The notes under the pieces are model-generated. The model made no database searches, had not been told where the DNA came from, and saw only the letters and a list, made by a program, of their open reading frames with translations. From an uncultured Thermoanaerobaculia bacterium (lineage in GTDB: Bacteria; Acidobacteriota; Thermoanaerobaculia; Multivoradales; Multivoraceae), in the NCBI GenBank assembly GCA_951813015.1, contig CATOTG010000011.1, positions 19,843 to 83,842 of the forward strand: a DNA stretch of 64,000 nt, written 5' to 3'. The translations under genes were made by a program, and so were the position numbers. Every line of letters begins with the position of its first letter. Positions within the stretch are counted from its first letter, which is position 1. Below, in pieces: positions 25,043 through 55,363 of the stretch.

Positions 25043-28000
25043 TGACTGCGGAAGAACACGTAAGCGCGCGGACCGGTTCGTCCAGGGATCCGGAGCGGCC
25101 GGAGTCGTCTCCGCCGGAGGCCGAGGCGCACCGCCACGTCCACCCGCTCATCCGCTTCGCGGTCGAGCGCCGGGTGACGATGTTCATGGCGACCCTGGGC
25201 CTGCTGGTGCTCGGCTGGCTTTCCCTTACCCGGCTGCCGCTGGAGTTCCTGCCCCTGTTCCAGTCATCCAACATCTCGGTCCGGGTGCCCTACCAGTCGT
25301 CCTCTCCGGAGGAGGTCGCACGGTCGATCGTCTGGCCCCTCGAAGACAGCCTGGGGACGATCAACGGCGTCCGGCTGCTTCGTTCGCGGGCCAGCGGCAA
25401 CTCGGCCTCGGTCGATATCGAGTTCCGGGACGGAACCGATATGGAGTTGGCGGCCGTCGACGTCCGCGACCGGATCGACCGGGTGCGCAATGAACTGCCC
25501 AGTGACGTGGAGCAGGTCTACGTCCGCCGCTTCGAGAGCACGGACATTCCGGTTCTCCGCAGCAGTCTCAGTGCTTCGTGGACCCAGGACGAACTGAACG
25601 ACTTCGTGGAGGACGTACTCCTGCCGCGGATCGAGCGGCTGGAGGGCGTGGCGCAGGCGGAAGTGTGGGGCATGCTGAGCCGGGAACTGCGCATCGAATT
25701 GCTGCCCGACCGCATGGCGGCGCACGGCGTGGACATTCGCGAGCTCCGCCAGGTCCTGCAGAGCAACCACGTCAACGTGTCGGGCGGGACCCTGCGCGAG
25801 GGGAGCCGCCGGCTGCTGGTCCGCACGATCGGCGAGTTCCGGACGCCCGACGAGATCCGGCGTCTGCCGATCCGCGGCGACGGCCTGCGGGTGGCCGATA
25901 TCGCCGACGTGAAGTTCGGCTATCCGGACAAGTACGAGTACAGCTTCCTGAACGGGTCGGAGGCGATCAGCCTGAGCGTGAACAAGGCCTCAGACGCCAA
26001 TCTGCTGGAGGTCGTGAGCCGGGTCAAGGAGGAGCTGGAAGCGATCCGGCAGACGCCCGAGGGCGAGGGCCTCGAGTTCCGCCACTTCCACGACACCTCG
26101 GTCGAGGTGCGCCAGGGGCTGACCGAGCTGGGCCGCAGCGGCCTCATCGGCGGCGGTCTGGCGATCGTCTTCATGTTCCTCTTCCTGAGGAAGTTCCGGA
26201 CCACGCTGCTGGTGGCCCTTGCGGTTCCGCTGTCCCTGGTCATGACCTTCGTCATGATGTACCTCGGCCGGCAGGCCGGAGTCACCGAGATCACGCTGAA
26301 CGTGATGAGCCTGATGGGGCTGATGCTCGCGATCGGGATGCTCCTCGACAACTCGATCGTGGTGATCGAGTCGATCTTCCGTCACCGGCAGGAGCTCGGC
26401 GCGAGTGCGAAGGAAGCCGCCCTGTGCGGCGCCAGCGACGTCGCGATGCCGATCATCTGCTCGACGATGACCACGATGTGCGTGTTCGTGCCGTTCATCT
26501 TCTTCGGCAGCGGCGGCGGCGGGCCGGGCAGCTTCTCGCGCTTCATGGGCGACATCGGCACAACGGTGTGCGTCGTCATGCTCGGGTCCCTGGTCATCTC
26601 CCTGACCGTGGTGCCGATGATCGCGGCGATCCTGCTCAAGTCGGAGAGCAAGCGCCGGTTCAAGCTGCTCGACCGGATCAGCGAGTGGTACGGGGCGACG
26701 CTCGGCTTCACCCTCCGCCACCGCTTCGTGTTCACCGTGGTGATCGGAGCGCTGCTCTACGGTTCCTGGCAGCTGTACAACAGCATCGAGCGGAGTTTCA
26801 ACCAGCAGTCCCAGGGCAGGGCGCTGACCGTCTTCGTCGACACGCCGCGACAGATGGGAATGGACGAGCGCCTGGCTCTCTACGACGAGGTCTACACGCT
26901 GCTCGATTCCAGGCGCGACGAGTGGGAGATCGCCGACATCGCCCATCAGGTACGCCGCGGCGGCGGCCGCAGCCGGGGATACGGCGGCGGCAACCGCTTC
27001 GAGGTCTATCTCAAGCCGGAGGAGGTCTCGGAGCTTTCCACGGACGAGGTCACCGAGCTCATCCGGGAGGCGATGCCGCAGCGGGTGGGCGTGCTGTTCA
27101 AACTCGCCCGCACCGAGTTCGGGCCGCCGGGTTCCGGGAGATCCGGAGTCGAGGTGGAACTGATCGGCGACGACATGGGCACACTCGAGCTTCTGGTGCC
27201 GCGAATCACCCAACGGCTGCGCCAGATTCCCATCGTCGGCGACATCGACAACTCGTTCGAGAGCGGCGACGACGAGATCCGGGTGACGGTGAACCGCGAG
27301 CGAGCGCTCCAGGGCGGCCTCTCGAGTCAGGCGGTGGCAATGACGGTCAACGGCGCGCTGTCAAGCCGTTCGCTGGCGTACTTCAAGACCGCGGAGCGCG
27401 AGATCGGCATGGTCATGCAGTACCGCGAGGAAGACCGCGAGACGCTCGATCAGTTGCGAAAGATGCCGGTCCTCGTGTCGGACCCGAACGGCGAGTCGGG
27501 AGGGGTCACCCTGCCGATCTCGAGCCTTGCCTCGTTCGACATCCGGAGCGGCCCGTCCGAGGTCGAGCGCGAGAATCGCCGCGCCAAGGTGGAGATTGAC
27601 GCGACGGCCGCGGGCGGCGTCCCGGGCTTCATGCTGCGGAGGCCGGTGCAGATGGCGCTCGCGGACGTGCCGCTGCCGCCGGGCTACGAGTGGTCGCTGG
27701 GCAGGAGGTTCATGGAGGCCGAGGAGGACGCGTCGCGCGCCGTTCTGGCGTTCATCCTCGCCGCGATACTGATCTACATGATCATGGCGGCCCTGTTCGA
27801 GGACTTCCTCCAGCCCTTCACGATCATGCTGTCGATTCCCTTCGCCTTCATCGGCGTCGGCCTGATCATGTACCTCGCCGGCCAGCCGAGGTCCGACTCG
27901 TCGAACATGGGGCTTCTCATCCTGGCCGGAATCGTGGTGAACAACGCGATCGTCCTGATCGACCACATCAACCGGCTGCGCCGCGAGGGCCTGGGCCGCT

Positions 28001-28305
28001 ATGACGCGATCGTTCTGGGCGGCAAGCACCGGTTGCGGCCCATCCTGATGACGGCGGTCACGACGATCCTGGGCCTGTCGCCCATGGTCGCGCCGTTCTT
28101 CCTGCCCCAAGTGTTCGGGCAGCCCGAGGGTCGGGCGGCCTTCTGGGCGCCGGTGGGTCTCGTCATTCTGGGCGGTCTGACCACCTCGACCTTCCTGACC
28201 CTGCTTGTGATTCCGACGGTCTATTCCCTGGTCGACGACGTGAAGCTCTTCGTCCAGCGGGTTGTGCGGGCGGCAGTCGCCGTTCCGCGGAGAAAGATGG
28301 CATGA
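25042..28305 (+). CDS. RND efflux transporter permease (AcrB/HAE-like) 1
   Basis: About 1,090 aa with 12-TM AcrB architecture (RVTMFMATLGLLVLG..., NNAIVLIDHINRLRREG). ATG 25042 overlaps the upstream stop (TGATG); GTG 25033 is an alternative. Confidence 0.9.
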   Translation: MTAEEHVSARTGSSRDPERPESSPPEAEAHRHVHPLIRFAVERRVTMFMATLGLLVLGWLSLTRLPLEFLPLFQSSNISVRVPYQSSSPEEVARSIVWPLEDSLGTINGVRLLRSRASGNSASVDIEFRDGTDMELAAVDVRDRIDRVRNELPSDVEQVYVRRFESTDIPVLRSSLSASWTQDELNDFVEDVLLPRIERLEGVAQAEVWGMLSRELRIELLPDRMAAHGVDIRELRQVLQSNHVNVSGGTLREGSRRLLVRTIGEFRTPDEIRRLPIRGDGLRVADIADVKFGYPDKYEYSFLNGSEAISLSVNKASDANLLEVVSRVKEELEAIRQTPEGEGLEFRHFHDTSVEVRQGLTELGRSGLIGGGLAIVFMFLFLRKFRTTLLVALAVPLSLVMTFVMMYLGRQAGVTEITLNVMSLMGLMLAIGMLLDNSIVVIESIFRHRQELGASAKEAALCGASDVAMPIICSTMTTMCVFVPFIFFGSGGGGPGSFSRFMGDIGTTVCVVMLGSLVISLTVVPMIAAILLKSESKRRFKLLDRISEWYGATLGFTLRHRFVFTVVIGALLYGSWQLYNSIERSFNQQSQGRALTVFVDTPRQMGMDERLALYDEVYTLLDSRRDEWEIADIAHQVRRGGGRSRGYGGGNRFEVYLKPEEVSELSTDEVTELIREAMPQRVGVLFKLARTEFGPPGSGRSGVEVELIGDDMGTLELLVPRITQRLRQIPIVGDIDNSFESGDDEIRVTVNRERALQGGLSSQAVAMTVNGALSSRSLAYFKTAEREIGMVMQYREEDRETLDQLRKMPVLVSDPNGESGGVTLPISSLASFDIRSGPSEVERENRRAKVEIDATAAGGVPGFMLRRPVQMALADVPLPPGYEWSLGRRFMEAEEDASRAVLAFILAAILIYMIMAALFEDFLQPFTIMLSIPFAFIGVGLIMYLAGQPRSDSSNMGLLILAGIVVNNAIVLIDHINRLRREGLGRYDAIVLGGKHRLRPILMTAVTTILGLSPMVAPFFLPQVFGQPEGRAAFWAPVGLVILGGLTTSTFLTLLVIPTVYSLVDDVKLFVQRVVRAAVAVPRRKMA

Positions 28306-29849
28306 AACGACAACGACTCGTGGGCGCGGGCCGCCAGGCCGGCGCCGTCCTGTTGATCGCGGCACTGGGTGTCGCCGGCATCGGCTGCGGGCAGTCGAAC
28401 GCCGAACCCGGCGGCGAGAACCCCCGCGCCGGGCAAGGCGGACCGGGCGGGGCAAGGCCCGGGGGACGCGGCGGCGGTCCTCCAGGGGGCTTTCCGGGTG
28501 GCATGCCGGGCTTCGGCGGCGCCGCGGCCCCTTCCGCGATTCCGGTCAGGGTGACGAGCGTCATTCGCCGCGACATCGCGGACTACCTGGAAACGAACGG
28601 ATCGCTCGAAGCCGAGAACGAGGTCGACATCGTGGCGCGTACGGACGGCCCGATCGTCGAACTGAACGTGGAGGAGGGTGACTTCGTCCGCGCCGGCCAG
28701 GTGCTGGCGCGCATCGACGCGGCGGAGATCGAGGCCCAGCTCGGGATCGCCCGCGTCAACTTGGCCGAGGCGGAACTGGCGTGGAACCGGGCCCAGTCGT
28801 CCTACCGCGAGGAGGTGATCAGCCAGGAGGCGTACGACCTCGCGAAGTCGAACTTCGACGCCGCCGCCGCCCAGATCGTGGGCACCGGGATCCTCCTCGA
28901 CTACACCGTGATTCGGGCGCCCTTCGACGGTCTGATCATCGAGAGGGTGATCAGGAATGCCGAGCACGTCTCGAACAACGCGAGGCTGTTCCGGATCTCC
29001 GATTTCGATCCGCTGCTCTGTCCGATTCAGCTTCCCGAGAAGGACCTGCCGCGGCTCAAGCTGGATCAAACCGCCTACCTCACGGTCGAGGCGTATCCCG
29101 GCGAGCGCTTTCCGGCCCGCGTGCTGCGGATCAGCCCGGTCGTCGATCCGGCGACCGGTACGGTCAAGGTCACGCTCGAAGTGCAGGCCCAGGGCCGCCT
29201 GCGTCCCGGAATGTTCGCCAGCGTGTTCGTCGAGACGGACATCCACGAGAACGCGCTCGTCGTGCCGAAGCAGGCTCTGGTCCTGGAGAGCACGTCCGAC
29301 ACCGTGTACGTGGCGATGGACGACGGCGAGGGCGGCGCCGTCGCCCGGCGTCGTTCACTCGAACTCGGCTACGAGGAGAGCGACAGCCTGGAGGTGCTCT
29401 CCGGCCTGAGCGAGGGGGAGGACGTCGTGATCCGCGGTCAGGACAACCTGTCCGACCAGACGCCGGTGAGGATCGACGAACGGGAAGGACCGGCGGCAGC
29501 GCCCGCGACGTTCACCTCGTTGCCGGCCTCGGGCGCCGGGAACCCCGCCCCGGTCGCCAACGCTCAGGGGGCGCCGGCTGCCGGGAGCGCGCCGACCGCC
29601 GAGCAGGCCGCGCCGCAGGCCCGCCCGCCAGGCGGCCCCGGAGGCTTCCCCGGCGGCCCTCCGGGCGGATTCGATCCGAGCCAGATGACGCCGGAACGAA
29701 TCGAAACGATGAAGGCCCGGATGAAGGAACGGGGCATGAGCGAGGAACAGATCGACCAGATGATCGAGCGGATCCGGAGCGGCCAGGGGCCGCCGGGAAG
29801 ACCGCCGGGCGGGCAGCAGGGTGGACCGCCGGGCGGGCCGCGGGATTGA
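28302..29849 (+). CDS. RND efflux periplasmic adaptor (MFP/HlyD-like) with Gly/Pro-rich N- and C-terminal tails
   Basis: Lipoyl and beta-barrel MFP core (IVARTDGPIVELNVEEGDFVRAGQVLARID...VIRAPFDGLI...). The flanks are low-complexity (GGPGGARPGGRGGGPPGGFPGG and PPGGPGGFPGGPPGG...GGQQGGPPGGP). Confidence 0.85.
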   Translation: MKRQRLVGAGRQAGAVLLIAALGVAGIGCGQSNAEPGGENPRAGQGGPGGARPGGRGGGPPGGFPGGMPGFGGAAAPSAIPVRVTSVIRRDIADYLETNGSLEAENEVDIVARTDGPIVELNVEEGDFVRAGQVLARIDAAEIEAQLGIARVNLAEAELAWNRAQSSYREEVISQEAYDLAKSNFDAAAAQIVGTGILLDYTVIRAPFDGLIIERVIRNAEHVSNNARLFRISDFDPLLCPIQLPEKDLPRLKLDQTAYLTVEAYPGERFPARVLRISPVVDPATGTVKVTLEVQAQGRLRPGMFASVFVETDIHENALVVPKQALVLESTSDTVYVAMDDGEGGAVARRRSLELGYEESDSLEVLSGLSEGEDVVIRGQDNLSDQTPVRIDEREGPAAAPATFTSLPASGAGNPAPVANAQGAPAAGSAPTAEQAAPQARPPGGPGGFPGGPPGGFDPSQMTPERIETMKARMKERGMSEEQIDQMIERIRSGQGPPGRPPGGQQGGPPGGPRD

Positions 29850-29884
29850 TCGGGCCTCCGGGGTTCCTGACCGGGTAACACGAC

Positions 29885-32800
29885 ATGAAGGTTGTTTCCT
29901 TCGCCACCCGGCGACCGGTCACCGTGTTCATCTTCGCCCTGGCGGCGGTGGTCTTCGGCGGCGTCGCCTTCCGCGATCTCGCGGTCGACCTGCTGCCGGA
30001 CATCACCTATCCGTCGCTGACCGTCCAGACGGAGTACGAGGGCGCGGCGCCGGTCGAGATGGAGAACCTGATCACGCGGCCGGTCGAGGACGCGGTCGGC
30101 GTGGTCAACGGCGTCAACCGGGTCGTCTCCAGTTCGCGGGCCGATATCAGCGAGGTCACCCTGGAGTTTTCCTGGGGCACGAACATGGACTTCGCGTCGC
30201 TCGACGTGCGCGAGCGGCTGGATCAGGTGCGGTTGCCGATCGAGGCCGAACGGCCGGTGCTGCTGCGCTACGACCCCTCGCTCGATCCGATCCTGCGAAT
30301 GGGCCTGGCCGCCGGCGGGAGCGACCTGATCGCGCTGCGCCTGCTGGCCGAGGAGGACCTGAAACGGAAGCTCGAGCGCCTGGAAGGGGTCGCCGCGGTC
30401 GTCGTCAGCGGCGGCCTGGAGGAGGAGATCCAGGTCGAGATCGACGAACGCCGCCTGACCAGTCTCGGGTTGACGATGAACCAGGTGATGAACCGCCTGG
30501 CGCAGGAGAACGTGAACCTGACCGGCGGCCGGCTGCGCGACGGTCAGACGGACTACCTGGTGCGAACGATCAACGAGCTGCTGCGTCCGGAGGAGATGCG
30601 GGAAATCGTGATCGATCGATCCCGGGGCGCGATCGTGCGCCTGGAGGACATCGCCCGCGTCTACCAGGGCGCCAGGGAACGGGAGGTGATCACCCGCATC
30701 GACGGCCGGGAGGCCGTGGAGATCGCGGTCTACAAGGAGGGCGGCACGAACACGGTGACCGTCGCGTCCGCCGTCCTCGATCGGGTGGAGGAGCTCGAGG
30801 AGGATCTCAGGCAGGTCGACCCGCAGCTCGAGCTGACCGTGCTCACCGACCAGTCGCGCTACATCCGGGACTCCGTGTCGGCCGTGATCGAGACCGCCCT
30901 GATCGGCGGCTCGCTTGCGATCGTCGTCCTGTTCCTGTTTCTGCGGAGTGCGCCCAAGACGCTGATCATCGGCATCTCGATCCCGGTCTCCGTCGTCGCG
31001 ACCTTCTTCTTGATGTACGTCGCCGGCGTGTCGCTGAACATCATGTCGCTGGGCGGGATCACGCTCGGCATCGGACTGCTGCTGGACAACTCGATCGTCG
31101 TCCTGGAGGCGATCCAGCGGCGCCGGGACCAGGGCGTGGGCATCGTCGAGGCTGCCCGTGGCGGCGCCTCCGAGGTAGGCCGTGCAGTGATCGCGAGCAC
31201 GATCACTACCGTCTGCGTGTTCGTGCCGATCGTGTTCGTCGAGGGCGTCGCCGGCCAGATGTTCGGCGATCAGGCGCTGACCGTGACCTTCTCCCTGCTC
31301 GTGTCGCTGGGGGTCGCGCTGACCGTGATCCCGATGCTCGCCTCCCGGAAGTTCTTCGCGACCGGGGACAGGGTCGAGAAGGTCGATTTCGCCGGGCGGT
31401 CCAACCCGGTTACCCGCGGTCTGGCGGATTTCTTCAACGCGATTGGGTTTGTCGTCGCGCTGACGGTCAGGATCGTGTTCGGTGGCGTTTCGACCGTCAT
31501 GTCGTGGCTCCTGCGGCCCGTGCTTGCCGGTTTCGACGCCTTGCTGCGGGGGATTACCGCGGTCTACGCCCGGATCCTCCGCGGCGCGCTGCGTCATCCC
31601 GCTCTGGTCGTCCTGGTGGCCCTCGTGCTCCTGGCCGGCAGCGTGCAGCTCATCGGCTCATTGGGCAGCGAACTCGTGCCGGAGCTGATCCAGGGCGAGT
31701 TCTACGTCGACGCTGAACTGGCGCCGGGCAGCCGGCTCGAAGTAACGGACCGGCGTCTGGCGGTCATCGACAAGCGCGTGCGCGAGTTTGCCGATGAGTT
31801 CGGCGTCCAGTCCGTCTACATTGTGGTCGGCACCTCGAACGAACAGGGAGGCGCGGCCGGCGAGAGACGGGAGAACATCGGGCAGGTCAACGTGCGGATG
31901 GAACCTCCGATCGATGCCGAGCGGGAAGAGCTGGTGATGAGCCGGATCCGGGATCTGATCGATACGGAGAATGCGTCCTTCACCGGCCCGGCGACCCCGG
32001 CCGACGGGGTGGCCCCCGTCGGTGGAGGACAGGCGCTTTCCGTCGCCGGCCGGCCGGCCGCCGGGGGAGGCCAGGCGAGTTCTGCCGCCGGTCCGGCGCC
32101 CGCTGCCGGCGGCGCCCGGCCGGCGCTGACGGACGACTCGCTGAAGTACCGCTTCGGCCGTCCCACGTACTTCAGCTTCAGGAGCCCGGTCGAAGTGCAG
32201 ATCCGTGGGCACAATCTCGCCCTGCTGGAGTTGCTGGCCGACCAGGTCGCATCGCGAATGCGCCAGGTCGAGGGTCTCGTCGACGTGAAGTCGTCCACCG
32301 AGGGCGGCAACCCGGAGTTGCAGATCGTCTTCGACCGGGAACGGCTGTCGGCATTGAACTACACCGTCGCCCAGCTCGGCGCCGTCATCCGCTCCAAGGT
32401 GCAGGGCGATATCGTGACCGACATCGTCCGCGAGGACCGCAACATCGAAGTCCGGATGCGGACCGACGAGGGCTACCGCGACTCGGTGCGCGACCTGCGC
32501 AACCTGAACATCCGCCAGAGCGGCGCGACCCCGCTGCCGCTGTCGGCGGTCGCGGAGGTGATCGAGACGGAAGGGCCGGCCGAGATTCGCCGCAGCGACG
32601 GCGGTCGGGTCGCGCTGATCGAAGCGAACATCGTCGGCCGCGACCTGGGAAGCGTCTCCGACGACATCCAGTCCATCCTCGATTCGACCCGGTTCCCGGT
32701 CGGCTTCGACGTTCTCGTAGGCGGCCAGCGCCAGGAAATGGAGCGCTCGTTCGACAGCATGCGGCTCGCGATCCTGCTGGCGGTGTTCATGGTCTACCTC

Positions 32801-33280
32801 GTCATGGCGTCCCAGTTCGAGTCCCTGCTGCACCCCTTCGTCATCCTGTTCGCCGTGCCCTTCTCGGTCATCGGGGCGATTGGCATCCTCTACCTCACGC
32901 GCACCCCGGTCAGCATCGTCGTTTTGATCGGCGGCATCCTGCTGGCGGGGATCGTGGTCAACAACGCGATCATCCTGATCGACTACACGAACCGCCTGCG
33001 CCGCGCCGGCAAGGCGAAGATCGACGCCCTGCGCGAGGCCTGCATGGTCCGGCTGCGGCCGATCCTCATGACGACCTCGACCACCGTGCTCGGCCTGCTG
33101 CCGATGGCCCTGGGCCTGGGCGAGGGAGCGGAACTCAGAACGCCGATGGCGCTGACCGTGGTCGGCGGACTGCTGACATCGACGCTTTTGACCCTGATCG
33201 TGATCCCGGCGCTGTACATGCTTCTTGACCGCCACAAGCACGAGGCCGATCCGGAAGCCGTTGCCCCGAGCGCGGGCTGA
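29885..33280 (+). CDS. RND efflux transporter permease (AcrB/HAE-like) 2
   Basis: 1,131 aa with AcrB architecture (NNAIILIDYTNRLRRAG). An Ala/Gly-rich insertion sits in a periplasmic loop. Confidence 0.9.
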   Translation: MKVVSFATRRPVTVFIFALAAVVFGGVAFRDLAVDLLPDITYPSLTVQTEYEGAAPVEMENLITRPVEDAVGVVNGVNRVVSSSRADISEVTLEFSWGTNMDFASLDVRERLDQVRLPIEAERPVLLRYDPSLDPILRMGLAAGGSDLIALRLLAEEDLKRKLERLEGVAAVVVSGGLEEEIQVEIDERRLTSLGLTMNQVMNRLAQENVNLTGGRLRDGQTDYLVRTINELLRPEEMREIVIDRSRGAIVRLEDIARVYQGAREREVITRIDGREAVEIAVYKEGGTNTVTVASAVLDRVEELEEDLRQVDPQLELTVLTDQSRYIRDSVSAVIETALIGGSLAIVVLFLFLRSAPKTLIIGISIPVSVVATFFLMYVAGVSLNIMSLGGITLGIGLLLDNSIVVLEAIQRRRDQGVGIVEAARGGASEVGRAVIASTITTVCVFVPIVFVEGVAGQMFGDQALTVTFSLLVSLGVALTVIPMLASRKFFATGDRVEKVDFAGRSNPVTRGLADFFNAIGFVVALTVRIVFGGVSTVMSWLLRPVLAGFDALLRGITAVYARILRGALRHPALVVLVALVLLAGSVQLIGSLGSELVPELIQGEFYVDAELAPGSRLEVTDRRLAVIDKRVREFADEFGVQSVYIVVGTSNEQGGAAGERRENIGQVNVRMEPPIDAEREELVMSRIRDLIDTENASFTGPATPADGVAPVGGGQALSVAGRPAAGGGQASSAAGPAPAAGGARPALTDDSLKYRFGRPTYFSFRSPVEVQIRGHNLALLELLADQVASRMRQVEGLVDVKSSTEGGNPELQIVFDRERLSALNYTVAQLGAVIRSKVQGDIVTDIVREDRNIEVRMRTDEGYRDSVRDLRNLNIRQSGATPLPLSAVAEVIETEGPAEIRRSDGGRVALIEANIVGRDLGSVSDDIQSILDSTRFPVGFDVLVGGQRQEMERSFDSMRLAILLAVFMVYLVMASQFESLLHPFVILFAVPFSVIGAIGILYLTRTPVSIVVLIGGILLAGIVVNNAIILIDYTNRLRRAGKAKIDALREACMVRLRPILMTTSTTVLGLLPMALGLGEGAELRTPMALTVVGGLLTSTLLTLIVIPALYMLLDRHKHEADPEAVAPSAG

Positions 33281-33581: not shown

Positions 33582-33978
33582 GGAAAATCTGAGCGCCCGC
33601 TGATCACATCTTCGACCCACCTCCTCACCGCGGGAATCGGGTCGAAGCTGGCGCCGCCGACCGCGGTGCGCCACGCAGGAGCCGCCAGAACCCCAAAGAG
33701 GGCGCCGGTCGGCCGCTTCATCTTCGCCGGCTCGACCAGGCTGCCGGCCTCAGGGCCAAGAGTGGATCACTTCCAGAACGTGGAGTAGCTCACTCTCCGA
33801 GCGATGCCTCCAACCAGGACCTCAAGATCGTCACGTACACACGATCGCACCTCCGAAAGGAACTGCTCATGCGCGCAGAGAGATCCGCGCAGGGAGATCA
33901 CGGTCCGTTCCCGGGCTCGCCAGCCGCACCGATGGACTGCCTCCGCACTCGCAGGACAATCACGGGAGAAGCCACCAC

Positions 33979-36900
33979 ATGACACCCAACGCGGCCCGGC
34001 ACGACAGCCTGCAACGACCGAACACTCCGCCGCCAGCAGGGCCGAGGATGCAACTGAGCCGCGAGCGAGCGGGCGACAACCGCGACCGGGTGCTGCCGCC
34101 CCCGCCCGCAGGACGGCGGGAGCAACGGAGCCGGCCGAAACTCCGACCGCCGGCCCGGCGCCTCGCCGCACTCCTGCTGGCCGCCGCGTGCGGCACAGGC
34201 GTTGCCGAAGGCCAGCGGCTCTGGAGTGTCGAGGACGTTGCCGACCGAACGCGACCGCCGCTCGGCCCGGATGGCGTCCTGCCCTTTGCCGCAACAGACG
34301 GCGCCGAACCCCTCGTGCCGGCATCGCCGACCTTCAGACGGATGTATCGGACGTCGCCAGACGCCCCAACAGGCGGCGCCGGACCCCTGACCGCCGAGGC
34401 TGCGCGGATCCAGGTCACGTTCGACTACCTGCGGCTCGGCTTCGGACACCTCGAACTGCCGCTCCCGGACGGCACGGCAATCGAAGCCGAGAACGCGGTG
34501 TTCGAGGACCGCGGAAACGGCAACTTCCTGTGGACCGGCGAAGTGCCCGGCGCCGGATACGAAAGCGTCCTGTTCACGGTCCAGGACGAGCACCTCGTCG
34601 GCTGGTTCGGAGAACCGGGAGGACCGAAGTACACCGTTTACGCCGGACCCGACGGCCGGGGAACACTTGCCGTGGAACAGGGACCAACCGGAAACTGGTG
34701 CGGCGTGGTGGAGGGAAGACCGCCGGCCGGCCCGGCCGTCTCGGCGGCGCCCGCCCGGGACCGCCCGGATTCCGTTGCGGGAAGATCGACCGGCAGCAGT
34801 CTGGACATCCTTGCTCTCTATCCCGGCCGCACGGAACGGTATTGGCGGGTCATCGGGGGACCCTCCGTCGGCATCCAGCAACTCGAGGACTACCTGAACA
34901 TGGTGTTCCGCAACGGACAGATCCCGGCAACGGCAAATCTGATCCCCGAGCGATGGGACCCGGTCCTGGCGAGTCATCCCGGTGTGGGTGGCGGTCACCG
35001 CTACAGCGGGCACGAGCAATGGCTCTGGGAGTTCGTGCGAGACCACGACGTATGGCGGCTGCAAAAGCGCCATCAAGCCGACCTCGTCCACTTCCTGCCC
35101 GACTGGGGTACCGCAGCCGGCACGGCCCGTCTGAGATCGGACCTCGAGCCGCGCGTCTTAACTGGCTGGTCCGTGCCCTGGCCGAGCGTCTTCGCCCATG
35201 AGATCGGGCACAACCTCGGCGGCATGCACGAGCCGGTGACCTTCAGAGACTTTGCGGAGCTGCAGTCCGATTGGTGGCGTCCGTATGTCTTCGGCCATAC
35301 CGACATGACCTCGTGCGCCAAGCGTGAGGGATCGGGCGACCTCTTGCTGTGCCCGAAAACGATCATGAGCTATGGCTGGGACACTTGGAACGTCCCCAAG
35401 CGCTCCAGCGTGAGGGAACCGTTCTACTCGTCTGTCCGGCACCAGCCGAACGGCTGGACGATCGGCGTCGCCGGCACGAGCGAGGTGGAACGCCTGTTCC
35501 ATGAAACCGTTCCCGTGGCGGTCCGCAGCGGGGAGGCGCAGGAGCCCAGGGCGCAGGACCCGCGACGGATCACGGCCCGGTGGACAGACCGGAACACGGT
35601 GCGTGTGTCCTTTGCTCTTGACCGGTGGAGGAACGTTGGGTATGTCAACGTCGGCCTGACGGGAGGCGGAAGCGAATTTTACCAGTGGGCGTTCAAGCAT
35701 CTTGACACTGAGGGTGGTGGGCGGAAGTACGTTCTTGACGAGGAGCGGACCGACAGCAACGTGACGCCGCTCTTCGATCCGCCGGATGAATTCGCGACCC
35801 CGGAGGTGACGGGCGTGGACATCACCGGGCTGCGGCCGGGTGGCCGCTACAAGGTCTCGGCGGACAGGTCGGGTGCCCTCAGCAGCGATGTGTTCGATCT
35901 GCGGCCGCCGGAAGCCGCGCAGGGCGCGCCGGCGGCGCCGGCGCATCTGAGCGCCCAGACAACGGGAGACGATGGCGCCCACCTGACCTGGAGCGTCGAC
36001 GACTCGTCGCCGGCAGGCGACTTCGAGGTCTGGTATCGCAAGTGGTCCGGCGAGGAGGCGGACGAGGTCTGGAGCCGCTACGGGGCCGCGCTGCCGGCGA
36101 GCGCCCGGTCGGCGGACGTCCGGGGACTGGCGGCGGGGGAGGAGGTTGCTGCCCGGTTTACGCCTGACTCTTGGGCGCTCCATTACATGGCCCGCGGTCG
36201 GTACTCCTTTGTCGTCGTCGCATACAACGCCGCGGGCTTCGCCGCCAGCGAGACGCTGGACTTCGAGTTCATGCCGGGGCCGTTCCCGGAGGCCACGCCC
36301 GCGGGAGAGCCGCCAGATTGCTGGCGCCGGTCCTCCGGCTTGGAGTTGGACGGCTACGAAGTCGATGTTTGCGTGGAGACTCCCGAGGGCGAGCGCCGGC
36401 GGGCCTGGGACTATCGCCTGGAGGCGGACCAGTCCGGGCTCCTGTACTTCTTCGATCGCGACAACGTCGAGCTGCTCGTGAAAGTCCTGGATGGCTGCGC
36501 CGTCAACGGCCACCGCTGGGTCTTCGTGGCGCCGGTGACGACCCTGGGATTTCGGCTGAACATCCGGGAATACAGTTCCTTTTTCCCGGACGGAGGCCTG
36601 TGGTACTACGATTCGAAGCGACGGCCTCAGGAGCGTCTCGCGTGGTGGTATAACGACGACGGCAACCCGCAGGGCAGCACCGCCCGCACGGTGAGCGACA
36701 CGACGGCTTTCTCCTGCACGCCGGCCGAGATCGCCGCAGCAAAGGCGCAGGCGGCGGTCGCGGAGGGCGGGTACGCGGCGTTCCTGCGTTCCCGCGGCCT
36801 GACCGGCGCCGGCCTCGCCTCGCTGGAGCGCCGGAGTGCGGGCGCGTCCACGGACTGCGAGCCGGGCGGAACCGCGCTCACCCTGGCCGGCGGCTACCAG

Positions 36901-37200
36901 GTCTCCATGTGCTACGAGACCTACGCCGGCGACACCGGCGATGCCCTCGACTGGGGCCTCGATTCCTCGCAGTCCGCGCTGCTCTACTTCTTTGAGCGGA
37001 ACAACGCGGAAGTCCTGATCAAGGTGCTCGACGGTTGCGGCGTGAACGGCCACCGCTGGGTCTTCGTCGCGCCGGTCACCGACCTCGCCTTCAACCTGCG
37101 CGTCGAAAGTCCGAACGGCGAGGTCTGGACCCACACGAACCGCCTGGGACAGACCGCCGACGCGGCCAGCGACACCTCGGCCTTCAGCTGCACCACGTGA
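33979..37200 (+). CDS. large secreted metzincin-type zinc metalloprotease (reprolysin/M12B-like motif) + FN3-like domain + 2 x 'VKVLDGC..NGHxW' Cys module (paralog 1)
   Basis: HEIGHNLGGMHE (HExxHxxGxxH, nt 35198-35233) with a downstream IMSYG Met-turn candidate. Signal-like LAALLLAAACGTGVAEG. FN3-like HLTWS..FEVWYRKWSG..VVVAYNAAGF. Two C-terminal modules (LLYFFDRDNVELLVKVLDGCAVNGHRWVFVAPVT... and LLYFFERNNAEVLIKVLDGCGVNGHRWVFVAPVT...AFSC). A GGGAGA SD precedes the ATG. Confidence 0.8.
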   Translation: MTPNAARHDSLQRPNTPPPAGPRMQLSRERAGDNRDRVLPPPPAGRREQRSRPKLRPPARRLAALLLAAACGTGVAEGQRLWSVEDVADRTRPPLGPDGVLPFAATDGAEPLVPASPTFRRMYRTSPDAPTGGAGPLTAEAARIQVTFDYLRLGFGHLELPLPDGTAIEAENAVFEDRGNGNFLWTGEVPGAGYESVLFTVQDEHLVGWFGEPGGPKYTVYAGPDGRGTLAVEQGPTGNWCGVVEGRPPAGPAVSAAPARDRPDSVAGRSTGSSLDILALYPGRTERYWRVIGGPSVGIQQLEDYLNMVFRNGQIPATANLIPERWDPVLASHPGVGGGHRYSGHEQWLWEFVRDHDVWRLQKRHQADLVHFLPDWGTAAGTARLRSDLEPRVLTGWSVPWPSVFAHEIGHNLGGMHEPVTFRDFAELQSDWWRPYVFGHTDMTSCAKREGSGDLLLCPKTIMSYGWDTWNVPKRSSVREPFYSSVRHQPNGWTIGVAGTSEVERLFHETVPVAVRSGEAQEPRAQDPRRITARWTDRNTVRVSFALDRWRNVGYVNVGLTGGGSEFYQWAFKHLDTEGGGRKYVLDEERTDSNVTPLFDPPDEFATPEVTGVDITGLRPGGRYKVSADRSGALSSDVFDLRPPEAAQGAPAAPAHLSAQTTGDDGAHLTWSVDDSSPAGDFEVWYRKWSGEEADEVWSRYGAALPASARSADVRGLAAGEEVAARFTPDSWALHYMARGRYSFVVVAYNAAGFAASETLDFEFMPGPFPEATPAGEPPDCWRRSSGLELDGYEVDVCVETPEGERRRAWDYRLEADQSGLLYFFDRDNVELLVKVLDGCAVNGHRWVFVAPVTTLGFRLNIREYSSFFPDGGLWYYDSKRRPQERLAWWYNDDGNPQGSTARTVSDTTAFSCTPAEIAAAKAQAAVAEGGYAAFLRSRGLTGAGLASLERRSAGASTDCEPGGTALTLAGGYQVSMCYETYAGDTGDALDWGLDSSQSALLYFFERNNAEVLIKVLDGCGVNGHRWVFVAPVTDLAFNLRVESPNGEVWTHTNRLGQTADAASDTSAFSCTT

Positions 37201-37474
37201 CCCGAGTCGTGGCGGGGATCGGGTTGGCCCCGACGGACTCCGTGAGCCCACTCTCCGTCGGCATGAGGATCTGGAGGAATGGCTCGGACGGCGGCGCGCG
37301 GAGACGGCCCGCTCATCCGTCCAGCCTCATCGTTGCGTTCTCCGCGCACCCGGAGAACGGCCGTTGGCGCGTCGGCGGCGCGAAGATCGAGCGTGCGGGG
37401 AAACGCCGGGCGGGCGGTCTCGACAGCGACGGCGCCTGCAGTGTGCGCCGGAGAATCACAGGAGGATCCACGAC

Positions 37475-40400
37475 ATGACATCCCAGGGAAGCCCGAAACG
37501 ACAGCCTGGAACCACAAAACACACCGCTGCCTGCCGGGCACAGCGGGAGTTCGCCACAAAGCGATCCACTGGACGACCGCCGGGCACTTCTGCTGAGCCG
37601 GCCGAACCCGCAACAGTCGGCCCTCCGAACCGGGAGCTGCTGCGGTTCAGGCGCGCAAGCTGCTCGAGATCGTCCGCGCCCCGCGGCGCCCGTGTGGCCG
37701 CATTCCTGCTCGGCGCCGCCTGTTTCGCAGGCGTGGCCGAAGGCCAGCGGCTCTGGAGCGTCGATGAGGTGACGGTCCGGCCGCGTCCGCCGGTCGAGGC
37801 CGCCGGCGCCCTGCCCTCTGCCGCAACGGCCGGCGCCGGACCCCTGACCGCCGAGGCTGCGCGGATCCAGGTCACGTTCGACTACCTGCGGCTCGGCTTC
37901 GGACGCCTCGAACTGCCGCTTGCGGACGGCACGGTAATCGAAGCCGAAAACGCGGTGTTCGAGGACCGCGGAAACGGCAACTTCCTGTGGACCGGCGAAG
38001 TGCCCGGCGCCGGATACGAAAGCGTCCTGTTCACGGTCCACGACGAGCACCTCGTCGGCTGGTTCGGAGAACCGGGAGGACCGAAGTACACCGTCCACGC
38101 CGGACCCGACGGCCGGGGAACGCTTGCCGTTGAACAGGGACCAACCGGAAACTGGTGCGGCGTGATGGATGGAAGGCCGCTGGCCGGCCCGGCCGCCGCG
38201 GCGACGCCCGCCCGGGACCTCCCGGATTCTGTTGCGGGAAGATCGACCGGCAGCGTTCTGGACATCCTCGCCCTCTATCCCCGCCGCACGGAACTCTGGT
38301 GGCGGGTCATCGGAGGGCCCTCCGTCGGCATCCAGCAACTCGAGGACTACCTGAACATGGTGTTCCGCAACGGACAGATCCCGGCGACGGCGAATCTGAT
38401 CCCCGAGCGATGGGACCCGGTCTGGGCGAGTCATCCCGGTGTGGGCGGCGGTCACCGCAACAATTCGTTCTGGCATTGGGAGTTCGGATCCAGCCACGAC
38501 GTATGGCGGCTGCAAGAGCGCCATCAAGCCGACCTCGTCCACTTCGTGCCCGACAGGGGTACCTCATACGCAGCCGGCGTTGCTTCCTTGAGATTCAGTT
38601 TCGAGCCGGGCGTTTACACCGGCTGGTCCGTGCCCTGGCCGCCGGACATCTTCGCCCATGAGATCGGGCACAACCTCGGAGGTGTCCATGAGCCGGCGAC
38701 CTTCAAGGACTTCGCCGAGGCCCAAGCGTGGTACGCAGAGCACTTTCGCCCGTACGTCTTCGGCCACACCGACCTGACCTCGTGCGCCACGCGTGAGGGA
38801 AGGGGCGACGCACTGTACTGCCCAAGTACGGTCATGAGCTACGGCCAGGACCTCTGGGACGACCCCGACCGTTACGCCGTGAGGGAACCGTTCTACTCGT
38901 CCGTTCGGCACCAGCCGAACGGCTGGACGATCGGCGTCGCCGGGACGAGCGAGGTGGAACGCCTGTTCCATGAGACCGTTCCCGTGGCGGTCCGCAGCGG
39001 GGAGGCTGAGGAACCCAGGGCGCAGGACCCGCGACGGATCACGGCCCGGTGGACAGACCGGAACACGGTGCGTGTGTCCTTTGCTCTTGACCAGCGGAGC
39101 ACCGCTGGGTATGTGAACGTCGGCCTGACGGGAGGCGGAAGCGAATTTTACCAGTGGGCGTTCAAGCATCTTGACACTGAGGGTGGTGGGTGGAAGTACG
39201 TTGTTGACGAGGAGTGGACCGACAGCAACGTGACGCCGCTCTTCGATCCGCCGGATGAATTCGCGACCCCGGAGGTGACGGGCGTGGACATCACCGGGCT
39301 GCGGCCGGGTGGCCGCTACAAGGTCTCGGCGGACAGGTCGGGTGCCCTCAGCAGCGATGTGTTCGATCTGCGGCCGCCGGAAGCCGCGCAGGGCGCTCCG
39401 GCGGCGCCGGAGCATCTGAGCGCCCCGACAACGGGAGACGACGCCGTCCGTCTGACCTGGCGCGCCGACGGCTCGGCGCCGCCAGACGGCTTCGAGGTCT
39501 GGTACCGCAAGTGGTCCGGCGACGAGCCGGATGAAGTCTGGCGGCGCTACGAAGGACCGCTGCCGGCGGACGCCCGCTCGGCAGACGTCCGGGGACTCGC
39601 GGCGGAGGAGGAGGTACCGATAACGGATCCCTTTTGGGATTCGGAGAGGCAAGTCTGGATCGACCGAGCGCACGCGCTGCGCGGCCGGTACTCTCTCGTC
39701 GTCGTCGCGTACAACGCCGCGGGCTTCGCCGCCAGCGAGACCCTGGACTTCGAGTTCATGCCGGGGCCGTTCCCGGAGGCCACGCCCGCGGGAGAGCTGC
39801 CAGATTGCTCGACTTGGACACGGTCCTCCGGCCTGGAGTTGGACGGCTACGACGTTTACGTTTGCTTGGAGACTCCCGGCGGCGAGCGTCGGCGGGCTTG
39901 GGATTACGGCCTGTCGGCGGACCAGTCCGGGCTCTTGTACTTCTTCGATCGCGACAACGTCGAGCTGCTCGTGAAGGTCCTGGATGGCTGCGCCGTGAAC
40001 GGCCACCGCTGGGTCTTCGTCGCGCCCGTGACGACCCTGGGATTTCGGCTGGCCATTCAGGAATGGGGTCCCTACGTCGCGGACAGGCGCCAGAGCTGGT
40101 ACTACGATTCAAAGCGCCGGCCTCAGGAGCGTATCGGGCGGAACATCGACGACGGCAACCCGCAGGGCAGTACCGCCCGCACGGTGAGCGACACGATGGC
40201 CTTCCCCTGCACGCCGGCCGAGATCGCCGCTGCAAGGGCGAAAGCGGCGGTCGCGGAGGGCGGACACGCGGCGTTCCTGCGTTCCCGCGGCCTGACCGGC
40301 GCCGGCCTGGCCTCGCTGGAGCGCCGCAGCGCGGGCGCGTCCACGGACTGCGAGCCGGGCGGAACCGCACTCACCCTGGCCGGCGGCTACCGGGTCTCCA

Positions 40401-40693
40401 TGTGCTACGAGACCTACGCCGGCGACACCGGCGACGCCCTCGACTGGGGCCTCGATTCCTCGCAGTCCGCGCTCTTGTACTTCTTTGAGCGGAACAACGC
40501 GGAAGTCCTGATCAAGGTGCTCGACGGCTGCGGCGTGAACGGCCACCGCTGGGTCTTCGTCGCGCCGGTCACCGACCTCGCCTTCAACCTGCGCGTCGAA
40601 AGCCCGGACGGCGAGGTCTGGACCCACACGAACCGCCTGGGACAGACCGCCGACGCGGCGAGCGACACCTCGGCCTTCGGCTGCACAGCGTGA
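37475..40693 (+). CDS. large secreted metzincin-type zinc metalloprotease, tandem paralog 2 (same architecture)
   Basis: Collinear with 33979..37200 at an offset of 3,496 bp. HEIGHNLGGVHE starts at nt 38658. AGGAGG lies 8 nt before ATG 37475. The SD-ATG context aatcac[g/a]gga..ccac.acatgaca is duplicated too. The ORF-track start at 37364 lies upstream of the duplicated SD. Confidence 0.8.
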   Translation: MTSQGSPKRQPGTTKHTAACRAQREFATKRSTGRPPGTSAEPAEPATVGPPNRELLRFRRASCSRSSAPRGARVAAFLLGAACFAGVAEGQRLWSVDEVTVRPRPPVEAAGALPSAATAGAGPLTAEAARIQVTFDYLRLGFGRLELPLADGTVIEAENAVFEDRGNGNFLWTGEVPGAGYESVLFTVHDEHLVGWFGEPGGPKYTVHAGPDGRGTLAVEQGPTGNWCGVMDGRPLAGPAAAATPARDLPDSVAGRSTGSVLDILALYPRRTELWWRVIGGPSVGIQQLEDYLNMVFRNGQIPATANLIPERWDPVWASHPGVGGGHRNNSFWHWEFGSSHDVWRLQERHQADLVHFVPDRGTSYAAGVASLRFSFEPGVYTGWSVPWPPDIFAHEIGHNLGGVHEPATFKDFAEAQAWYAEHFRPYVFGHTDLTSCATREGRGDALYCPSTVMSYGQDLWDDPDRYAVREPFYSSVRHQPNGWTIGVAGTSEVERLFHETVPVAVRSGEAEEPRAQDPRRITARWTDRNTVRVSFALDQRSTAGYVNVGLTGGGSEFYQWAFKHLDTEGGGWKYVVDEEWTDSNVTPLFDPPDEFATPEVTGVDITGLRPGGRYKVSADRSGALSSDVFDLRPPEAAQGAPAAPEHLSAPTTGDDAVRLTWRADGSAPPDGFEVWYRKWSGDEPDEVWRRYEGPLPADARSADVRGLAAEEEVPITDPFWDSERQVWIDRAHALRGRYSLVVVAYNAAGFAASETLDFEFMPGPFPEATPAGELPDCSTWTRSSGLELDGYDVYVCLETPGGERRRAWDYGLSADQSGLLYFFDRDNVELLVKVLDGCAVNGHRWVFVAPVTTLGFRLAIQEWGPYVADRRQSWYYDSKRRPQERIGRNIDDGNPQGSTARTVSDTMAFPCTPAEIAAARAKAAVAEGGHAAFLRSRGLTGAGLASLERRSAGASTDCEPGGTALTLAGGYRVSMCYETYAGDTGDALDWGLDSSQSALLYFFERNNAEVLIKVLDGCGVNGHRWVFVAPVTDLAFNLRVESPDGEVWTHTNRLGQTADAASDTSAFGCTA

Positions 40694-41505: not shown

Positions 41506-43927
41506 CTAGTCGCGAGGGAAGCTCTCCACGAGTTCTTCGGCGGTCCAGGGGTCCGCGCGGTCGCTCGTTCGTTCACGCACCCCGGTGACCGTCTCCGGCG
41601 AAACCGGATCCGCCGTGTTGCCCCAGCTTCCTCCGGATGTAGGTCAGCAGCGCGGCGAGCGCCGGGTCCGGCAGTCGCGGATCGGGAGCGAAGCCGGGCA
41701 TGAAATCGTCCCAGATTTCGCCGTGGACCTCGATCGGGCCTTCGATCCCGTGGAGGACGAGTGCGGCAAGGCGTTCCGGCGGGCCGAGGACCCATGGCGA
41801 GTCGACCAGACTCGGGCCCAGGCCGTCCTGACCCCGGCCGTCTTCGTTGTGGCATGAACTGCAGGCCCGGTAGTGTCGGCGGCCGCTGTTGAACCGGGCT
41901 GCTTCGTCGGCGGTCAGCGTGCGGGCGGCGGGCCGCTCCCGGGCTTCGCCCGCCCCCGCGCCGTCCAGGTTGGCGGCGAGAGCGGCCTGATGGCGGAGCG
42001 GACCATCCTGGCGGGCGGTGAGCGCGCCGGCGGCAGGCGCCTCCCGGGCTTCGCCGCCGCCGGTGTCGTCCAAATTGGCGGCGAGCGCGACCTGACGGTG
42101 GAGGGGATCTTCGGGGTGGGCGGCCAGACGTTCCCCAAGGGCATCTCGGGCCCAAGACGCTTCGCGAGCGGCGGCGCCCAGGGTGAGCAGCGCCTGGGTG
42201 CGGACCTGGACCGACGAGGAGTCCAGCAGTTCGGCGATGGCGGTACGACCGTTCGGGCTTGTGGCCAGAGCCGCCGCGCCCGCCCGCAGGCCGTGGACGA
42301 CGAGCCAGGGGTCGCGCTCCCGGATGGCCGCCTGCACGGTCGCCGCGTCGAGTTCGCCGCGTCCGCTGAGCGTCCAGAGGGCGTGGATGCGCGCCAATGA
42401 GCTCCGGCTCGTCCGTGCGAGTTCCCGCAGCGCATCGTGTTCCGCCCCGGTCAGTTCGCCCTCGACCAGGAGGCGCTGGGCGGTGTCGCGGCGCCAGCCG
42501 TTCGGATGGGACAGCGCGGCGATGCGGGCCGCCGTGGCGGCCAGTTCCGGCGCCTCGCGGCGTACCGGCGCCGGGTCGGCGGACGTCCCCTCCCAGACCA
42601 CGCGGTAGATGCGGCCCATGCCCAGAGGCCGGTCCAGCCCGTGCTCGAGGATGTACTCGCGCAGGTAGGTCGTCACGTACCGCACGTGCTGCAGGATGCC
42701 GCGATACATGTCGATCACGTACAGCGTCCCGTCCGGTCCGACTTTCGCGTCGACGGGCCGAAAGCGCTCGTCGGTCGAGGCCAGGAACTCGCGTTCCACC
42801 CAGTCCGGATCCCCGTAGCGACGGTGCTCGGCGACCAGGGTCGGGATCCCGCTCTCCACCGCGCCAGGGGCAAGATCGAAGTGCGCAACGACATTGCCGG
42901 CCGGCTCCGGCACGAACACGTCACCCCGGAAGGTGGCGGGGAACTGGTCGCCGCGATAGACCGTCAGCCCGCTGACCGAAGTGGTCACGGCGAGCCTGCC
43001 GTCGTCGCGCAGCATGCCGTTCACGTAGCCGCGGTTGATGCCGGGATTGACCCGGATCGAGTAGACGGACTCGTCGTGGACAAGGCGCTCGCTGGCGCCG
43101 ATGCCGCCGCCCCGCGGCTGGTGCTCCGGGTTGGCCAGGGCGTAGTCGGCCGGGATCAGATCGGCGAAGAGGTAGCGCGAGTTCGTGTTGTAGTAGAGGC
43201 GGCCGACGTCGTCCTGGGCGATGCCCCACTGACCGCGAAACAGGGTCGAATCGACCTCAACCGAGAATCCGCCGGCAGCGCGCCGCAACCGGAAGCGGCG
43301 ATCCGACTTCGCGTTGTAGATCCAGTTGTCGAGTGCCCGGAGCAGCCCGTTCTCCGTGTGCTCGAGCAGGTCGGGGTCGGGATCGCCGTAGTCGAGCAGC
43401 CGCTCGCGGCTCGCGCAACGGGGCAGAGCCCCATCGTCCGCCTCGCTCCGGCACAGCCACAGGTTCGGCGGTTCGCCGATCAGGATCCCGCCGGAGACGG
43501 CGGCGATGGCCCGGGGACTGATGAGTCCGTCCAGGTAGACCCCGTGGCGATCCATCATGCCGTCGTGGTCCGTGTCCTCGAGCACGACGACGCGGCCGAC
43601 GGGCGCCTGCTCACCCTCGCCGTCGACTGTCGGCATGAAGCCGCGCATCTCGACGACGTAGAGGAGGCCGCGCTCGTCCCAGGCGATTGCCACGGGATCC
43701 TCGACGAGGGGTTCCGCGGCGACGAGTTCGAGGCGGAAACCCGGGGCCACGCGGAAGCTCGCCATCGCCTCCGCCGGAGACAGGGGAGGGGCGTCGGGCG
43801 CCTCGAACCGGCGCCACACCTGGTCCATCACATGACCTTCGCGGTCGCCGCGCTGGGCGGCGACCGGAACCGAGGCCGAAGCCACGCCAATCAGGGCCGC
43901 CGCGGCCATCAGTGATCTCCCGCCCAT
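41506..43927 (-). CDS. PVC-type heme-binding (CxxCH) protein with membrane-bound-dehydrogenase-like domain and HEAT-like repeats; apparent frameshift near its 3' end
   Basis: N-terminal signal and FRVAPGFRLELVAAEPLVEDPVAIAWDERGLLYVVEM (dehydrogenase-type propeller). Cytochrome c motif CSSCH. The track ORF stops at 41573, but the conserved tail (WGNTADPVSPETVTGVRERTSDRADPWTAEELVESFPRD*) continues in another frame after about 41626-41633. Confidence 0.8.
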
Positions 43928-55276: not shown

Positions 55277-55363
55277 TGGTGCGAAAGGGGGGACTCGAAC
55301 CCCCACGGTATTGCTACCACAAGAACCTGAATCTTGCGCGTCTACCAATTCCGCCACTTTCGC
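55277..55363 (-). tRNA. tRNA-Leu (anticodon CAG), class II with long variable arm
   Basis: The reverse complement folds as GCGAAAG/CTTTCGC acceptor, anticodon stem CAAGA/TCTTG with loop TTCAGGT, T-arm GGGGG-TTCGAGT-CCCCC, and an encoded CCA. Confidence 0.9.

Follow-up and report, generated by a model that had tools for sequence, protein, structure and literature searches.

A paired, cysteine-bridged beta module on secreted proteins of Acidobacteriota, a possible surface anchor of tandem metzincins

Two neighbouring genes for secreted metzincins, here called A and B, and a third gene, C, share a cysteine-containing module in a stretch of 64,000 nucleotides from an uncultured Thermoanaerobaculia bacterium (Acidobacteriota; contig CATOTG010000011.1, positions 19,843 to 83,842). 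The whole of this stretch is called the window below. The locus raises the question of what this module is and what it does on the proteins that carry it. The first-pass annotation of the window could attach neither a family name nor a function to it. The module is an unnamed, autonomous, cysteine-bridged beta domain that represents a large, structurally unassigned family, and a pair of such modules is a terminal unit on dozens of unrelated exoproteins per genome. It belongs to a known class of terminal accessory modules, and is itself without a name, a solved relative or a detectable fold match. The function favoured here, which is rated at roughly 45%, is that the pair anchors its passengers to a surface or matrix polymer of the producer itself.

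The module and its predicted structure

The module is 116-139 aa long, with the core GGYxVxxCxET...QSGLLYFFxRxNxExLxKVLDGCxVNGHRWVFVAPVTxLxFxL...SDTxAFxC. When its profile was compared with the six-frame translation of the window, exactly five copies were found (domain E-values of 7e-41 to 1e-63; Table 1): A and B have two each, and C has one. This recurrence is far beyond chance. The count of five copies in three secreted proteins given by the first-pass annotation is exact, with the reservation that the copy in C retains only the LDGC and C-terminal cysteines and lacks the first cysteine pair.

Among the cysteines, C3 (LDGC) is 100% conserved, C1 is 89% conserved and C4 is conserved at 60% in its column; a C-terminal cysteine is usual. 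C2 occupies one of two alternative positions, which are split between two subfamilies. The conserved cysteine pairs and the retention of the second pair alone in C suggest disulfides C1-C2 and C3-C4, as would fit an extracytoplasmic domain. In A, the predicted bonds would be C781-C798 and C840-C913 in module 1, and C960-C978 and C1020-C1071 in module 2. Conservation extends to aromatic and acidic positions (FF, DN.E, W and D..AF).

No model of Pfam-A or NCBIfam matches the modules of A, B and C even at E<=1, and no Pfam family covers the module in 62 scanned relatives. These null results include the Pfam profiles for PPC, PKD, carbohydrate-binding modules (CBM) and SLH, at the same threshold for A, B and C and in the 62 relatives, and the NCBIfam sorting-signal models for A, B and C. 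There is no relative of the module among the PDB sequences. The AlphaFold2 (AF2) model, based on a 17-sequence alignment, is all-beta, with nine strands and one short helix (pLDDT 89.9, pTM 0.83). Foldseek found no neighbour of this model in the PDB (best E 0.14, TM<=0.39) or in BFVD (best E 0.10). Within the PDB and BFVD, the predicted structure makes the module a candidate new fold. Literature searches turned up no account of either the module or these proteins. The earlier description of an unnamed module with conserved cysteines stands after these searches, since no family in Pfam-A or NCBIfam, no PDB sequence and no Foldseek match supplies a name.

Placement, partners and distribution of the module pair

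An exhaustive hidden Markov model (HMM) search with the module over 1.84 billion cluster representatives (50% identity clusters) yielded 9,171 clusters at E<=1e-3, 7,538 at E<=1e-10 and 1,851 at E<=1e-30. Placement and partner domains were surveyed in the 150 closest relatives. Nearly all of them have two adjacent copies. The best match of module 1 is another module 1 in 91 of 121 cases, and that of module 2 is another module 2 in 84 of 121, indicating that the pair travels as a unit. A word-index homolog search with a single module returned short fragments only, all labelled "hypothetical". The relatives in general are labelled "hypothetical", "PKD domain-containing" or "fibronectin type III domain-containing" in the databases.

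The pair lies at the extreme C-terminus in 115 of the 150 best relatives, in proteins of 193-6,814 aa. A C-terminal domain restricted to one phylum and present many times per genome is the pattern by which the C-terminal domains (CTDs) of the type IX secretion system (T9SS) and PEP-CTERM were recognised. The module could likewise be the recognition domain of an Acidobacteriota-specific outer-membrane secretion or surface-attachment pathway that works like the T9SS CTD. Its position at the very end of unrelated exoproteins of up to 6,814 aa, its dozens of copies per genome and its occurrence in one phylum fit such a role. In a similar way, the T9SS CTD of Bacteroidota (Por_Secre_tail) is a small beta domain, confined to one phylum, with which dozens of unrelated secreted enzymes and adhesins per genome end.

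The module, however, shows no sequence or fold match to the T9SS CTD, forms a tandem pair with disulfides, and is found in Acidobacteriota. Models of the Por_Secre_tail and TIGR04183 type in Pfam and NCBIfam do not match A, B or C at E<=1, nor any of 53 relatives, and no other sorting-signal model matches. The T9SS CTD is obligately C-terminal and single copy. In contrast, about 30 of the 150 best relatives (P0035-P0048, P0105, P0122, P0154 and others) have the pair directly after the signal peptide, so that it is N-terminal in the mature protein and the passenger is C-terminal to it. There are also free-standing pairs, in proteins with little beyond a signal peptide and the pair. Tripartite sorting signals (PEP-CTERM, LPXTG, GlyGly-CTERM) are absent; the C-terminus of A and B is the folded beta module itself (...SDTSAFSCTT), and no hydrophobic helix follows it. 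No conserved machinery gene is found next to the module genes in 158 loci. A pathway of this kind is decidedly unlikely. An obligate C-terminal secretion signal, and with it the "sorting" role that the first-pass annotation had offered as one option, is disfavoured, because about one fifth of the close relatives have an N-terminal pair and free-standing pairs exist.

The partners of the pair are diverse. In the proteins with a C-terminal pair that were compared with Pfam (n=53), fn3 was found in 15 and Reprolysin in 10. Further partners are lactonase and sortilin/BNR propellers, beta-helix, S8, PKD, M23, M10, M28, Calx-beta, PMP repeats and invasin. N-terminal pairs are followed by leucine-rich repeats (LRR), M60 peptidase, CARDB and TIG. 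The proposal of a module for "a protease system" is therefore too narrow; the module is promiscuous and is joined to many unrelated passenger domains. Giants of 3,800-6,800 aa (P0083 with 6,814 aa, P0081, P0074 and P0068) have the same pair at their end. At least three of them (P0083, P0081 and P0074) start with a beta domain of the metzincin pro-domain type ("DxDLLR…").

The pair may also work in substrate targeting, like a CBM or a lectin. It would then bind an external polymer, such as sponge matrix, a detrital glycan or a protein, and concentrate the enzyme on its substrate. A beta-rich, disulfide-stabilised extracellular domain in a bivalent tandem would suit this role, and so would the free-standing pairs, the many hydrolase partners, including mucinase-type M60, and the conserved aromatic and acidic positions. 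However, the partners are proteases, LRRs, adhesin repeats and propellers, with no glycoside hydrolase among the Pfam families listed for the 62 scanned relatives. The module is shared by sponge, marine-sediment and soil lineages, for which a single habitat substrate is not obvious, and it has no similarity to any Pfam CBM. Substrate targeting is considered somewhat unlikely.

The subfamily found in the window occurs in Thermoanaerobaculia of sponges and marine settings, namely "Ca. Multivorans" and bins from sponges that are labelled Holophagales or Acidobacteria, and each genome has many loci. A and B are accordingly assigned to a marine or sponge-type member of Thermoanaerobaculia. The subfamily with LCLxxGRFxVxVxW...FWFFxxDNWEMLVKVLDGC occurs in soil and sediment Thermoanaerobaculia and Holophagae. 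An unbiased scan of 185,579 species genomes for the motif FFx3NxEx3KVLDGC was performed, with a calculated chance expectation of ~0.02 hits. Among the matches listed, all are metagenome-assembled genomes (MAGs), and every named record is Acidobacteriota or an unclassified MAG. A few MAG contigs labelled as Gammaproteobacteria, Alphaproteobacteria or Actinobacteria carried the module in the locus scan; they may be mis-binned. Similar modules in Xanthomonadales-type Gammaproteobacteria were considered; a search with the most gamma-like module again gave only Acidobacteriota, and apart from the contigs just named the lead was dropped. Judging from the sequences collected, the family appears so far essentially only in Acidobacteriota, with the named genomic hits mainly in Thermoanaerobaculia, and the module is typical of the Thermoanaerobaculia and Holophagae secretomes.

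Of the 780 genes in the fetched loci, 207 encode the module; two to four such genes occur together in 39 of the loci. In the ~90 kb sampled from one 4.9-Mb chromosome there are at least 10 module genes. As related chromosomes carry many module genes, five copies in the window are normal for the lineage, and the recurrence within one window, which the first-pass annotation had pointed out, is unremarkable. The gene type most often found beside module genes (28 genes in 18 loci, including L021 and L025) encodes a ~750-aa acidobacterial protein with no Pfam match, unrelated to A. It probably represents just a common acidobacterial paralog family. The remaining neighbours are sulfatase, DUF3179, radical SAM, ABC transporter and similar genes.

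Divergence of A and B and the proposed anchoring of passengers

A and B are collinear, and show 80% identity in protein and 89% in DNA. The identity is mosaic. The regions of aa 132-231, 526-625 and 965-1064 are 96-98% identical in DNA, while the blocks of aa 380-475 (around the active-site cleft), 726-767 and 866-914 show 73-80% DNA identity. The least diverged part is the last module, module 2, at 97% identity between the two paralogs, against 66-76% in the active-site region. Such a mosaic suggests gene conversion between diverging tandem paralogs.

Repeats carry a general risk in metagenome assemblies, and the tandem pair could in principle be a collapsed or duplicated repeat, in which case the recurrence of the module would be trivial. 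Almost no weight is given to this explanation. A and B differ at 11% of their nucleotides, in mosaic blocks of 73-98% identity, their leaders differ, and the spacer of 274 bp between them is unique. Related complete chromosomes have several paralogs of the same architecture, some of them adjacent. The best full-length match to A shows 61% identity among species-representative genomes; in the protein collection the best match shows 80-85% and lies on a 4.63-Mb contig with three paralogs. Look-ups of the exact products of A, B and two close homologs gave no match. The level of divergence indicates diverged paralogs rather than an assembly artefact. The tandem duplication reported in the first-pass annotation is real, and A and B are diverged tandem paralogs.

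In the reading favoured here, the pair would have no catalytic role and would work outside the cell as a bivalent unit for tethering or binding. Once exported by Sec and disulfide-bonded, it would hold the fused passenger, such as a protease, an LRR protein, a propeller or a giant adhesin, on a common ligand. The ligand would most probably be a polymer of the producer's cell surface or matrix. The fibronectin type III (FN3) domains would serve as spacers between the enzyme and the anchor. Diversification of the paralogs would be focused on the protease cleft, with the anchor kept nearly identical. The conservation of module 2 between A and B, beside a diverging cleft, fits paralogs of different specificity that are displayed alike.

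Three arguments favour anchoring to the producer's own surface. The pair is fused to proteases, adhesin repeats and LRRs, and not to carbohydrate-active enzymes. One and the same module serves sponge, sediment and soil lineages, which points to a ligand common to bacteria rather than one of a single habitat. The pair is placed at either end of proteins, as is typical for anchoring modules such as SLH but not for C-terminal secretion signals. By this analogy we infer that the pair may function like terminal modules of the SLH or dockerin type rather than as a secretion signal. SLH domains and dockerins are likewise repeated, found at either end of diverse exoproteins, present in many copies per genome and independent of the passenger. 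They are unrelated to the module in sequence and predicted structure, as the module is all-beta with ~9 strands, whereas SLH is helical and dockerins consist of Ca-binding helices. There is also no cohesin-like partner among the neighbours of the 158 module loci.

Several points weigh against this anchoring role. No fold neighbour in the PDB or BFVD points to a binding site on the module. Clustering of the neighbour genes of the 158 module loci revealed no conserved partner such as a receptor or a scaffold. A free-standing pair makes less sense as a pure anchor than as a lectin-like binder. The placements and partners cited come from the 150 closest relatives among the 9,171 clusters.

A broader proposal is that the pair is a new fold and the common handle of an Acidobacteriota-specific system for surface display, or for secretion and retention, with a cognate ligand or machinery. 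By analogy, this handle would be carried by dozens of exoproteins per genome, in a role like that of the T9SS CTD in Bacteroidota or SLH in Firmicutes. This proposal as a whole is regarded as rather unlikely.

The metzincin genes in their context

In both A and B, a leader with a signal segment is followed by a pro-domain ending in WCGV, the metzincin domain, two FN3-like domains and two modules. The metzincin motif given in the first-pass annotation, HEIGHNLGG[M/V]HE, is present in both proteins, which thus have HExxHxxGxxH, and secreted metzincin-like enzymes are supported. In 46 homologs, H407, E408, H411, G414 and H417 are invariant. The Met-turn lies 43-46 residues past the zinc motif, with T461 invariant and M463 at least 90% conserved in the same homologs. 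W240 and C241 of the WCGV are also invariant, and G242 is at least 90% conserved.

The Pfam matches of the catalytic part, Reprolysin_3/4/5, are borderline. Reprolysin_3 scores 26.4 bits for B (cut-off 22.4) and 22.1 bits for A, the other Reprolysin models score below their cut-offs, and homologs of A and B reach Reprolysin_5 at 2e-12. The profile of the 46 homologs shows weak, coherent matches in the PDB to adamalysins, ADAMs, ADAMTS and fragilysin (E ~2e-3). In the AF2 model of full-length A (pTM 0.70), the leader is disordered and the signal segment forms a helix. The beta pro-domain (aa 79-235; pLDDT ~50-75, some stretches of low confidence) is joined by a disordered linker to an alpha/beta catalytic domain at aa 272-515 (pLDDT ~85-95). 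Past the FN3 region come module 1, a helical linker and module 2. Foldseek aligned the catalytic part with the metzincin CpaA (6o38; E 5e-7, root-mean-square deviation 4.5 A over 257 columns).

An FN3-like domain had been noted in A and B; it is present, and the AF2 model shows two of them instead of one. Foldseek matched the model of A to tandem FN3 structures (E ~5e-8). Pfam detects only the second FN3 of A, and weakly (aa 653-721). The fn3 scores of A and B (20.7 and 23.9 bits) are below the cut-off of 25, and C scores 38.9 bits.

Adamalysins/reprolysins (MEROPS M12B; Pfam Reprolysin_3/4/5) share with A and B the HExxHxxGxxH motif, the downstream Met-turn, secretion, and an N-terminal pro-domain with a conserved Cys motif at its end. 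A and B are nevertheless very distant relatives of this family (~20-26 bits in Pfam, E ~1e-3 to solved adamalysins). A and B have Glu after the third His, instead of the Asp that is typical of M12B, and an IMSY Met-turn with an astacin/serralysin-like Tyr. They are without disintegrin or Cys-rich domains and have two FN3 domains and the module pair instead.

The WCGV motif just precedes the disordered linker to the catalytic domain. It resembles the cysteine switch of adamalysins, PKMCGV, and looks like a candidate adamalysin-type cysteine switch. This likeness implies that the A and B proteases would be made as zymogens. By sequence, A and B are classified as secreted pro-metzincins, remote adamalysin-like (M12B-like) members of the clan and probable zinc metalloprotease zymogens.

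The pro-domain also bears on another conceivable role of the module, as a C-terminal extension of the pre-peptidase type (PPC-like) that acts as a chaperone or inhibitor and is removed after secretion. The module is often C-terminal on secreted peptidases (M12, M10, M23, M28 and S8), and accessory domains of the PPC and PKD type are also non-catalytic beta domains on secreted peptidases. However, the latency of A and B would already be explained by the WCGV pro-domain. The module is not limited to peptidases; it is also found on non-enzymes (LRR, PKD, Calx-beta and adhesin giants), at N-termini and alone. It has no match to PPC or any other Pfam family. This role is very improbable.

Table 1. 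Coordinates of the genes, domains and motifs discussed, and of neighbouring features, in the window.
Feature	Position	Strand	Description
Gene A	33979..37200	+	ORF, 1073-aa secreted pro-metzincin (predicted); two FN3-like domains, two modules
Shine-Dalgarno-like sequence and leader of A	33959..34160
Signal segment of A	34162..34212	+	Hydrophobic, aa 62-78, LAALLLAAACGTGVAEG; hydropathy
WCGV of A	34696..34707	+	End of N-terminal beta pro-domain; candidate cysteine switch
Zinc-binding motif of A	35197..35232	+	HEIGHNLGGMHE, aa 407-418
Met-turn of A	35359..35376	+	TIMSYG
FN3-like domains of A	35566..36273	+	Two beta domains, aa 530-641 and 650-765; AF2 pLDDT ~85-95
Module A-1	36313..36720	+	aa 779-914, with ~20-aa insertion; E 7e-53
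Module A-2	36850..37197	+	aa 958-1073, extreme C-terminus; E 1.6e-63; AF2 pLDDT 89.9
Gene B	37475..40693	+	ORF from ATG 37475, 1072-aa tandem paralog of A
Shine-Dalgarno-like sequence and leader of B	37455..37700
WCGV of B	38153..38164	+	Equivalent of WCGV of A
Zinc-binding motif of B	38657..38692	+	HEIGHNLGGVHE, aa 395-406
Met-turn of B	38828..38845	+	TVMSYG
Module B-1	39800..40213	+	E 1.1e-50
Module B-2	40343..40690	+	E 1.1e-63; 97% identical to A-2
Gene C	5564..6307	-	247 aa; signal segment, one FN3 domain, one module
Module C	5567..5926	-	aa 128-247 of gene C; only second cysteine pair kept; E 7e-41
TonB-dependent receptor gene	6489..8882	-	182 bp from gene C
RND efflux cluster	25033..33280		Directly upstream of A
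AcrB-type pump	25033..28305
Membrane-fusion protein	28302..29849		Between the two AcrB-type pumps
AcrB-type pump	29885..33280
DUF7133-cytochrome c protein	41573..43927	-	Internal near-repeat
tRNA-Leu(CAG)	55277..55363	-
tRNA-Pro(GGG)	58256..58332	+

The coordinates of the open reading frames (ORFs) in the first-pass annotation were borne out, both for the two collinear ORFs of 1,073 and ~1,072 aa, whose starts are 3,496 bp apart, and for the 247-aa gene C, which is on the minus strand. The G+C content of the window is 67.8%. At third codon positions it is 0.82 in A, which is typical for coding sequence here, and B likewise is as expected of real genes. Gene B has an earlier in-frame TTG at 37364. 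A Shine-Dalgarno-like sequence, ATCAC[G/A]GGAG, is observed upstream of both ATGs (GGGAG in A and AGGAGG in B, 8-14 nt before; the AGGAGG lies 8 nt 5' of ATG 37475). The ATGs are thus the likely starts of A and B. For the same reason, the basic, Pro-rich leader of 60-75 aa ahead of the hydrophobic segment is probably truly translated in both, and the long basic N-terminus with a signal-like segment, as first annotated, seems genuine.

The leader regions are unusually long, only 35% identical between A and B, and absent from the orthologs in other genomes. The orthologs have ordinary signal peptides of 20-30 aa with a short Ala-rich end plus Q, followed directly by RLW[ST][VL].EV. From these ends of the ortholog signal peptides, mature A probably begins near Q79 (QRLWSV). 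A signal segment is present in all three proteins, A, B and C. A Tat signal was rejected for A and B, as the RR in A is not conserved in B. A lipoprotein is unsupported, since the lipobox around the signal-segment Cys is poor and orthologs do not have this Cys.

Gene C lies downstream of a gene for a TonB-dependent receptor. The two are 182 bp apart on the same strand (5564..8882), and they may form one operon. The neighbouring genes in the window are ordinary and encode resistance-nodulation-division (RND) efflux, DUF7133-cytochrome c, Nramp, ABC transporters and an S9 peptidase. The RND efflux cluster includes two AcrB-type pumps and a membrane-fusion protein. The DUF7133-cytochrome c protein has an internal near-repeat (…ALAANLD.(G/T)G.GEARE.PAA..LTA…), which also yields long shadow ORFs on the opposite strand. 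The two tRNA genes in Table 1 are the sole Rfam/ARAGORN matches in the window, and the promoter/terminator, Rfam and tRNA scans of the window gave nothing bearing on the module.

As metzincin genes, A and B are ordinary additions to a known enzyme clan. The module is of wider interest. In soils, sediments and sponges, Acidobacteriota rank among the most abundant bacteria, and little is known of how they deploy their large secreted proteomes. With its presence in more than 9,000 protein clusters, on proteases, adhesins and giant surface proteins, the module offers a concrete and testable entry point, and it merits a curated family model. If its ligand were found, this would show how enzymes are kept at the surface of these bacteria, most of them uncultured, or how the cells attach to hosts and particles, and it would let thousands of "hypothetical" proteins be annotated as exoproteins.

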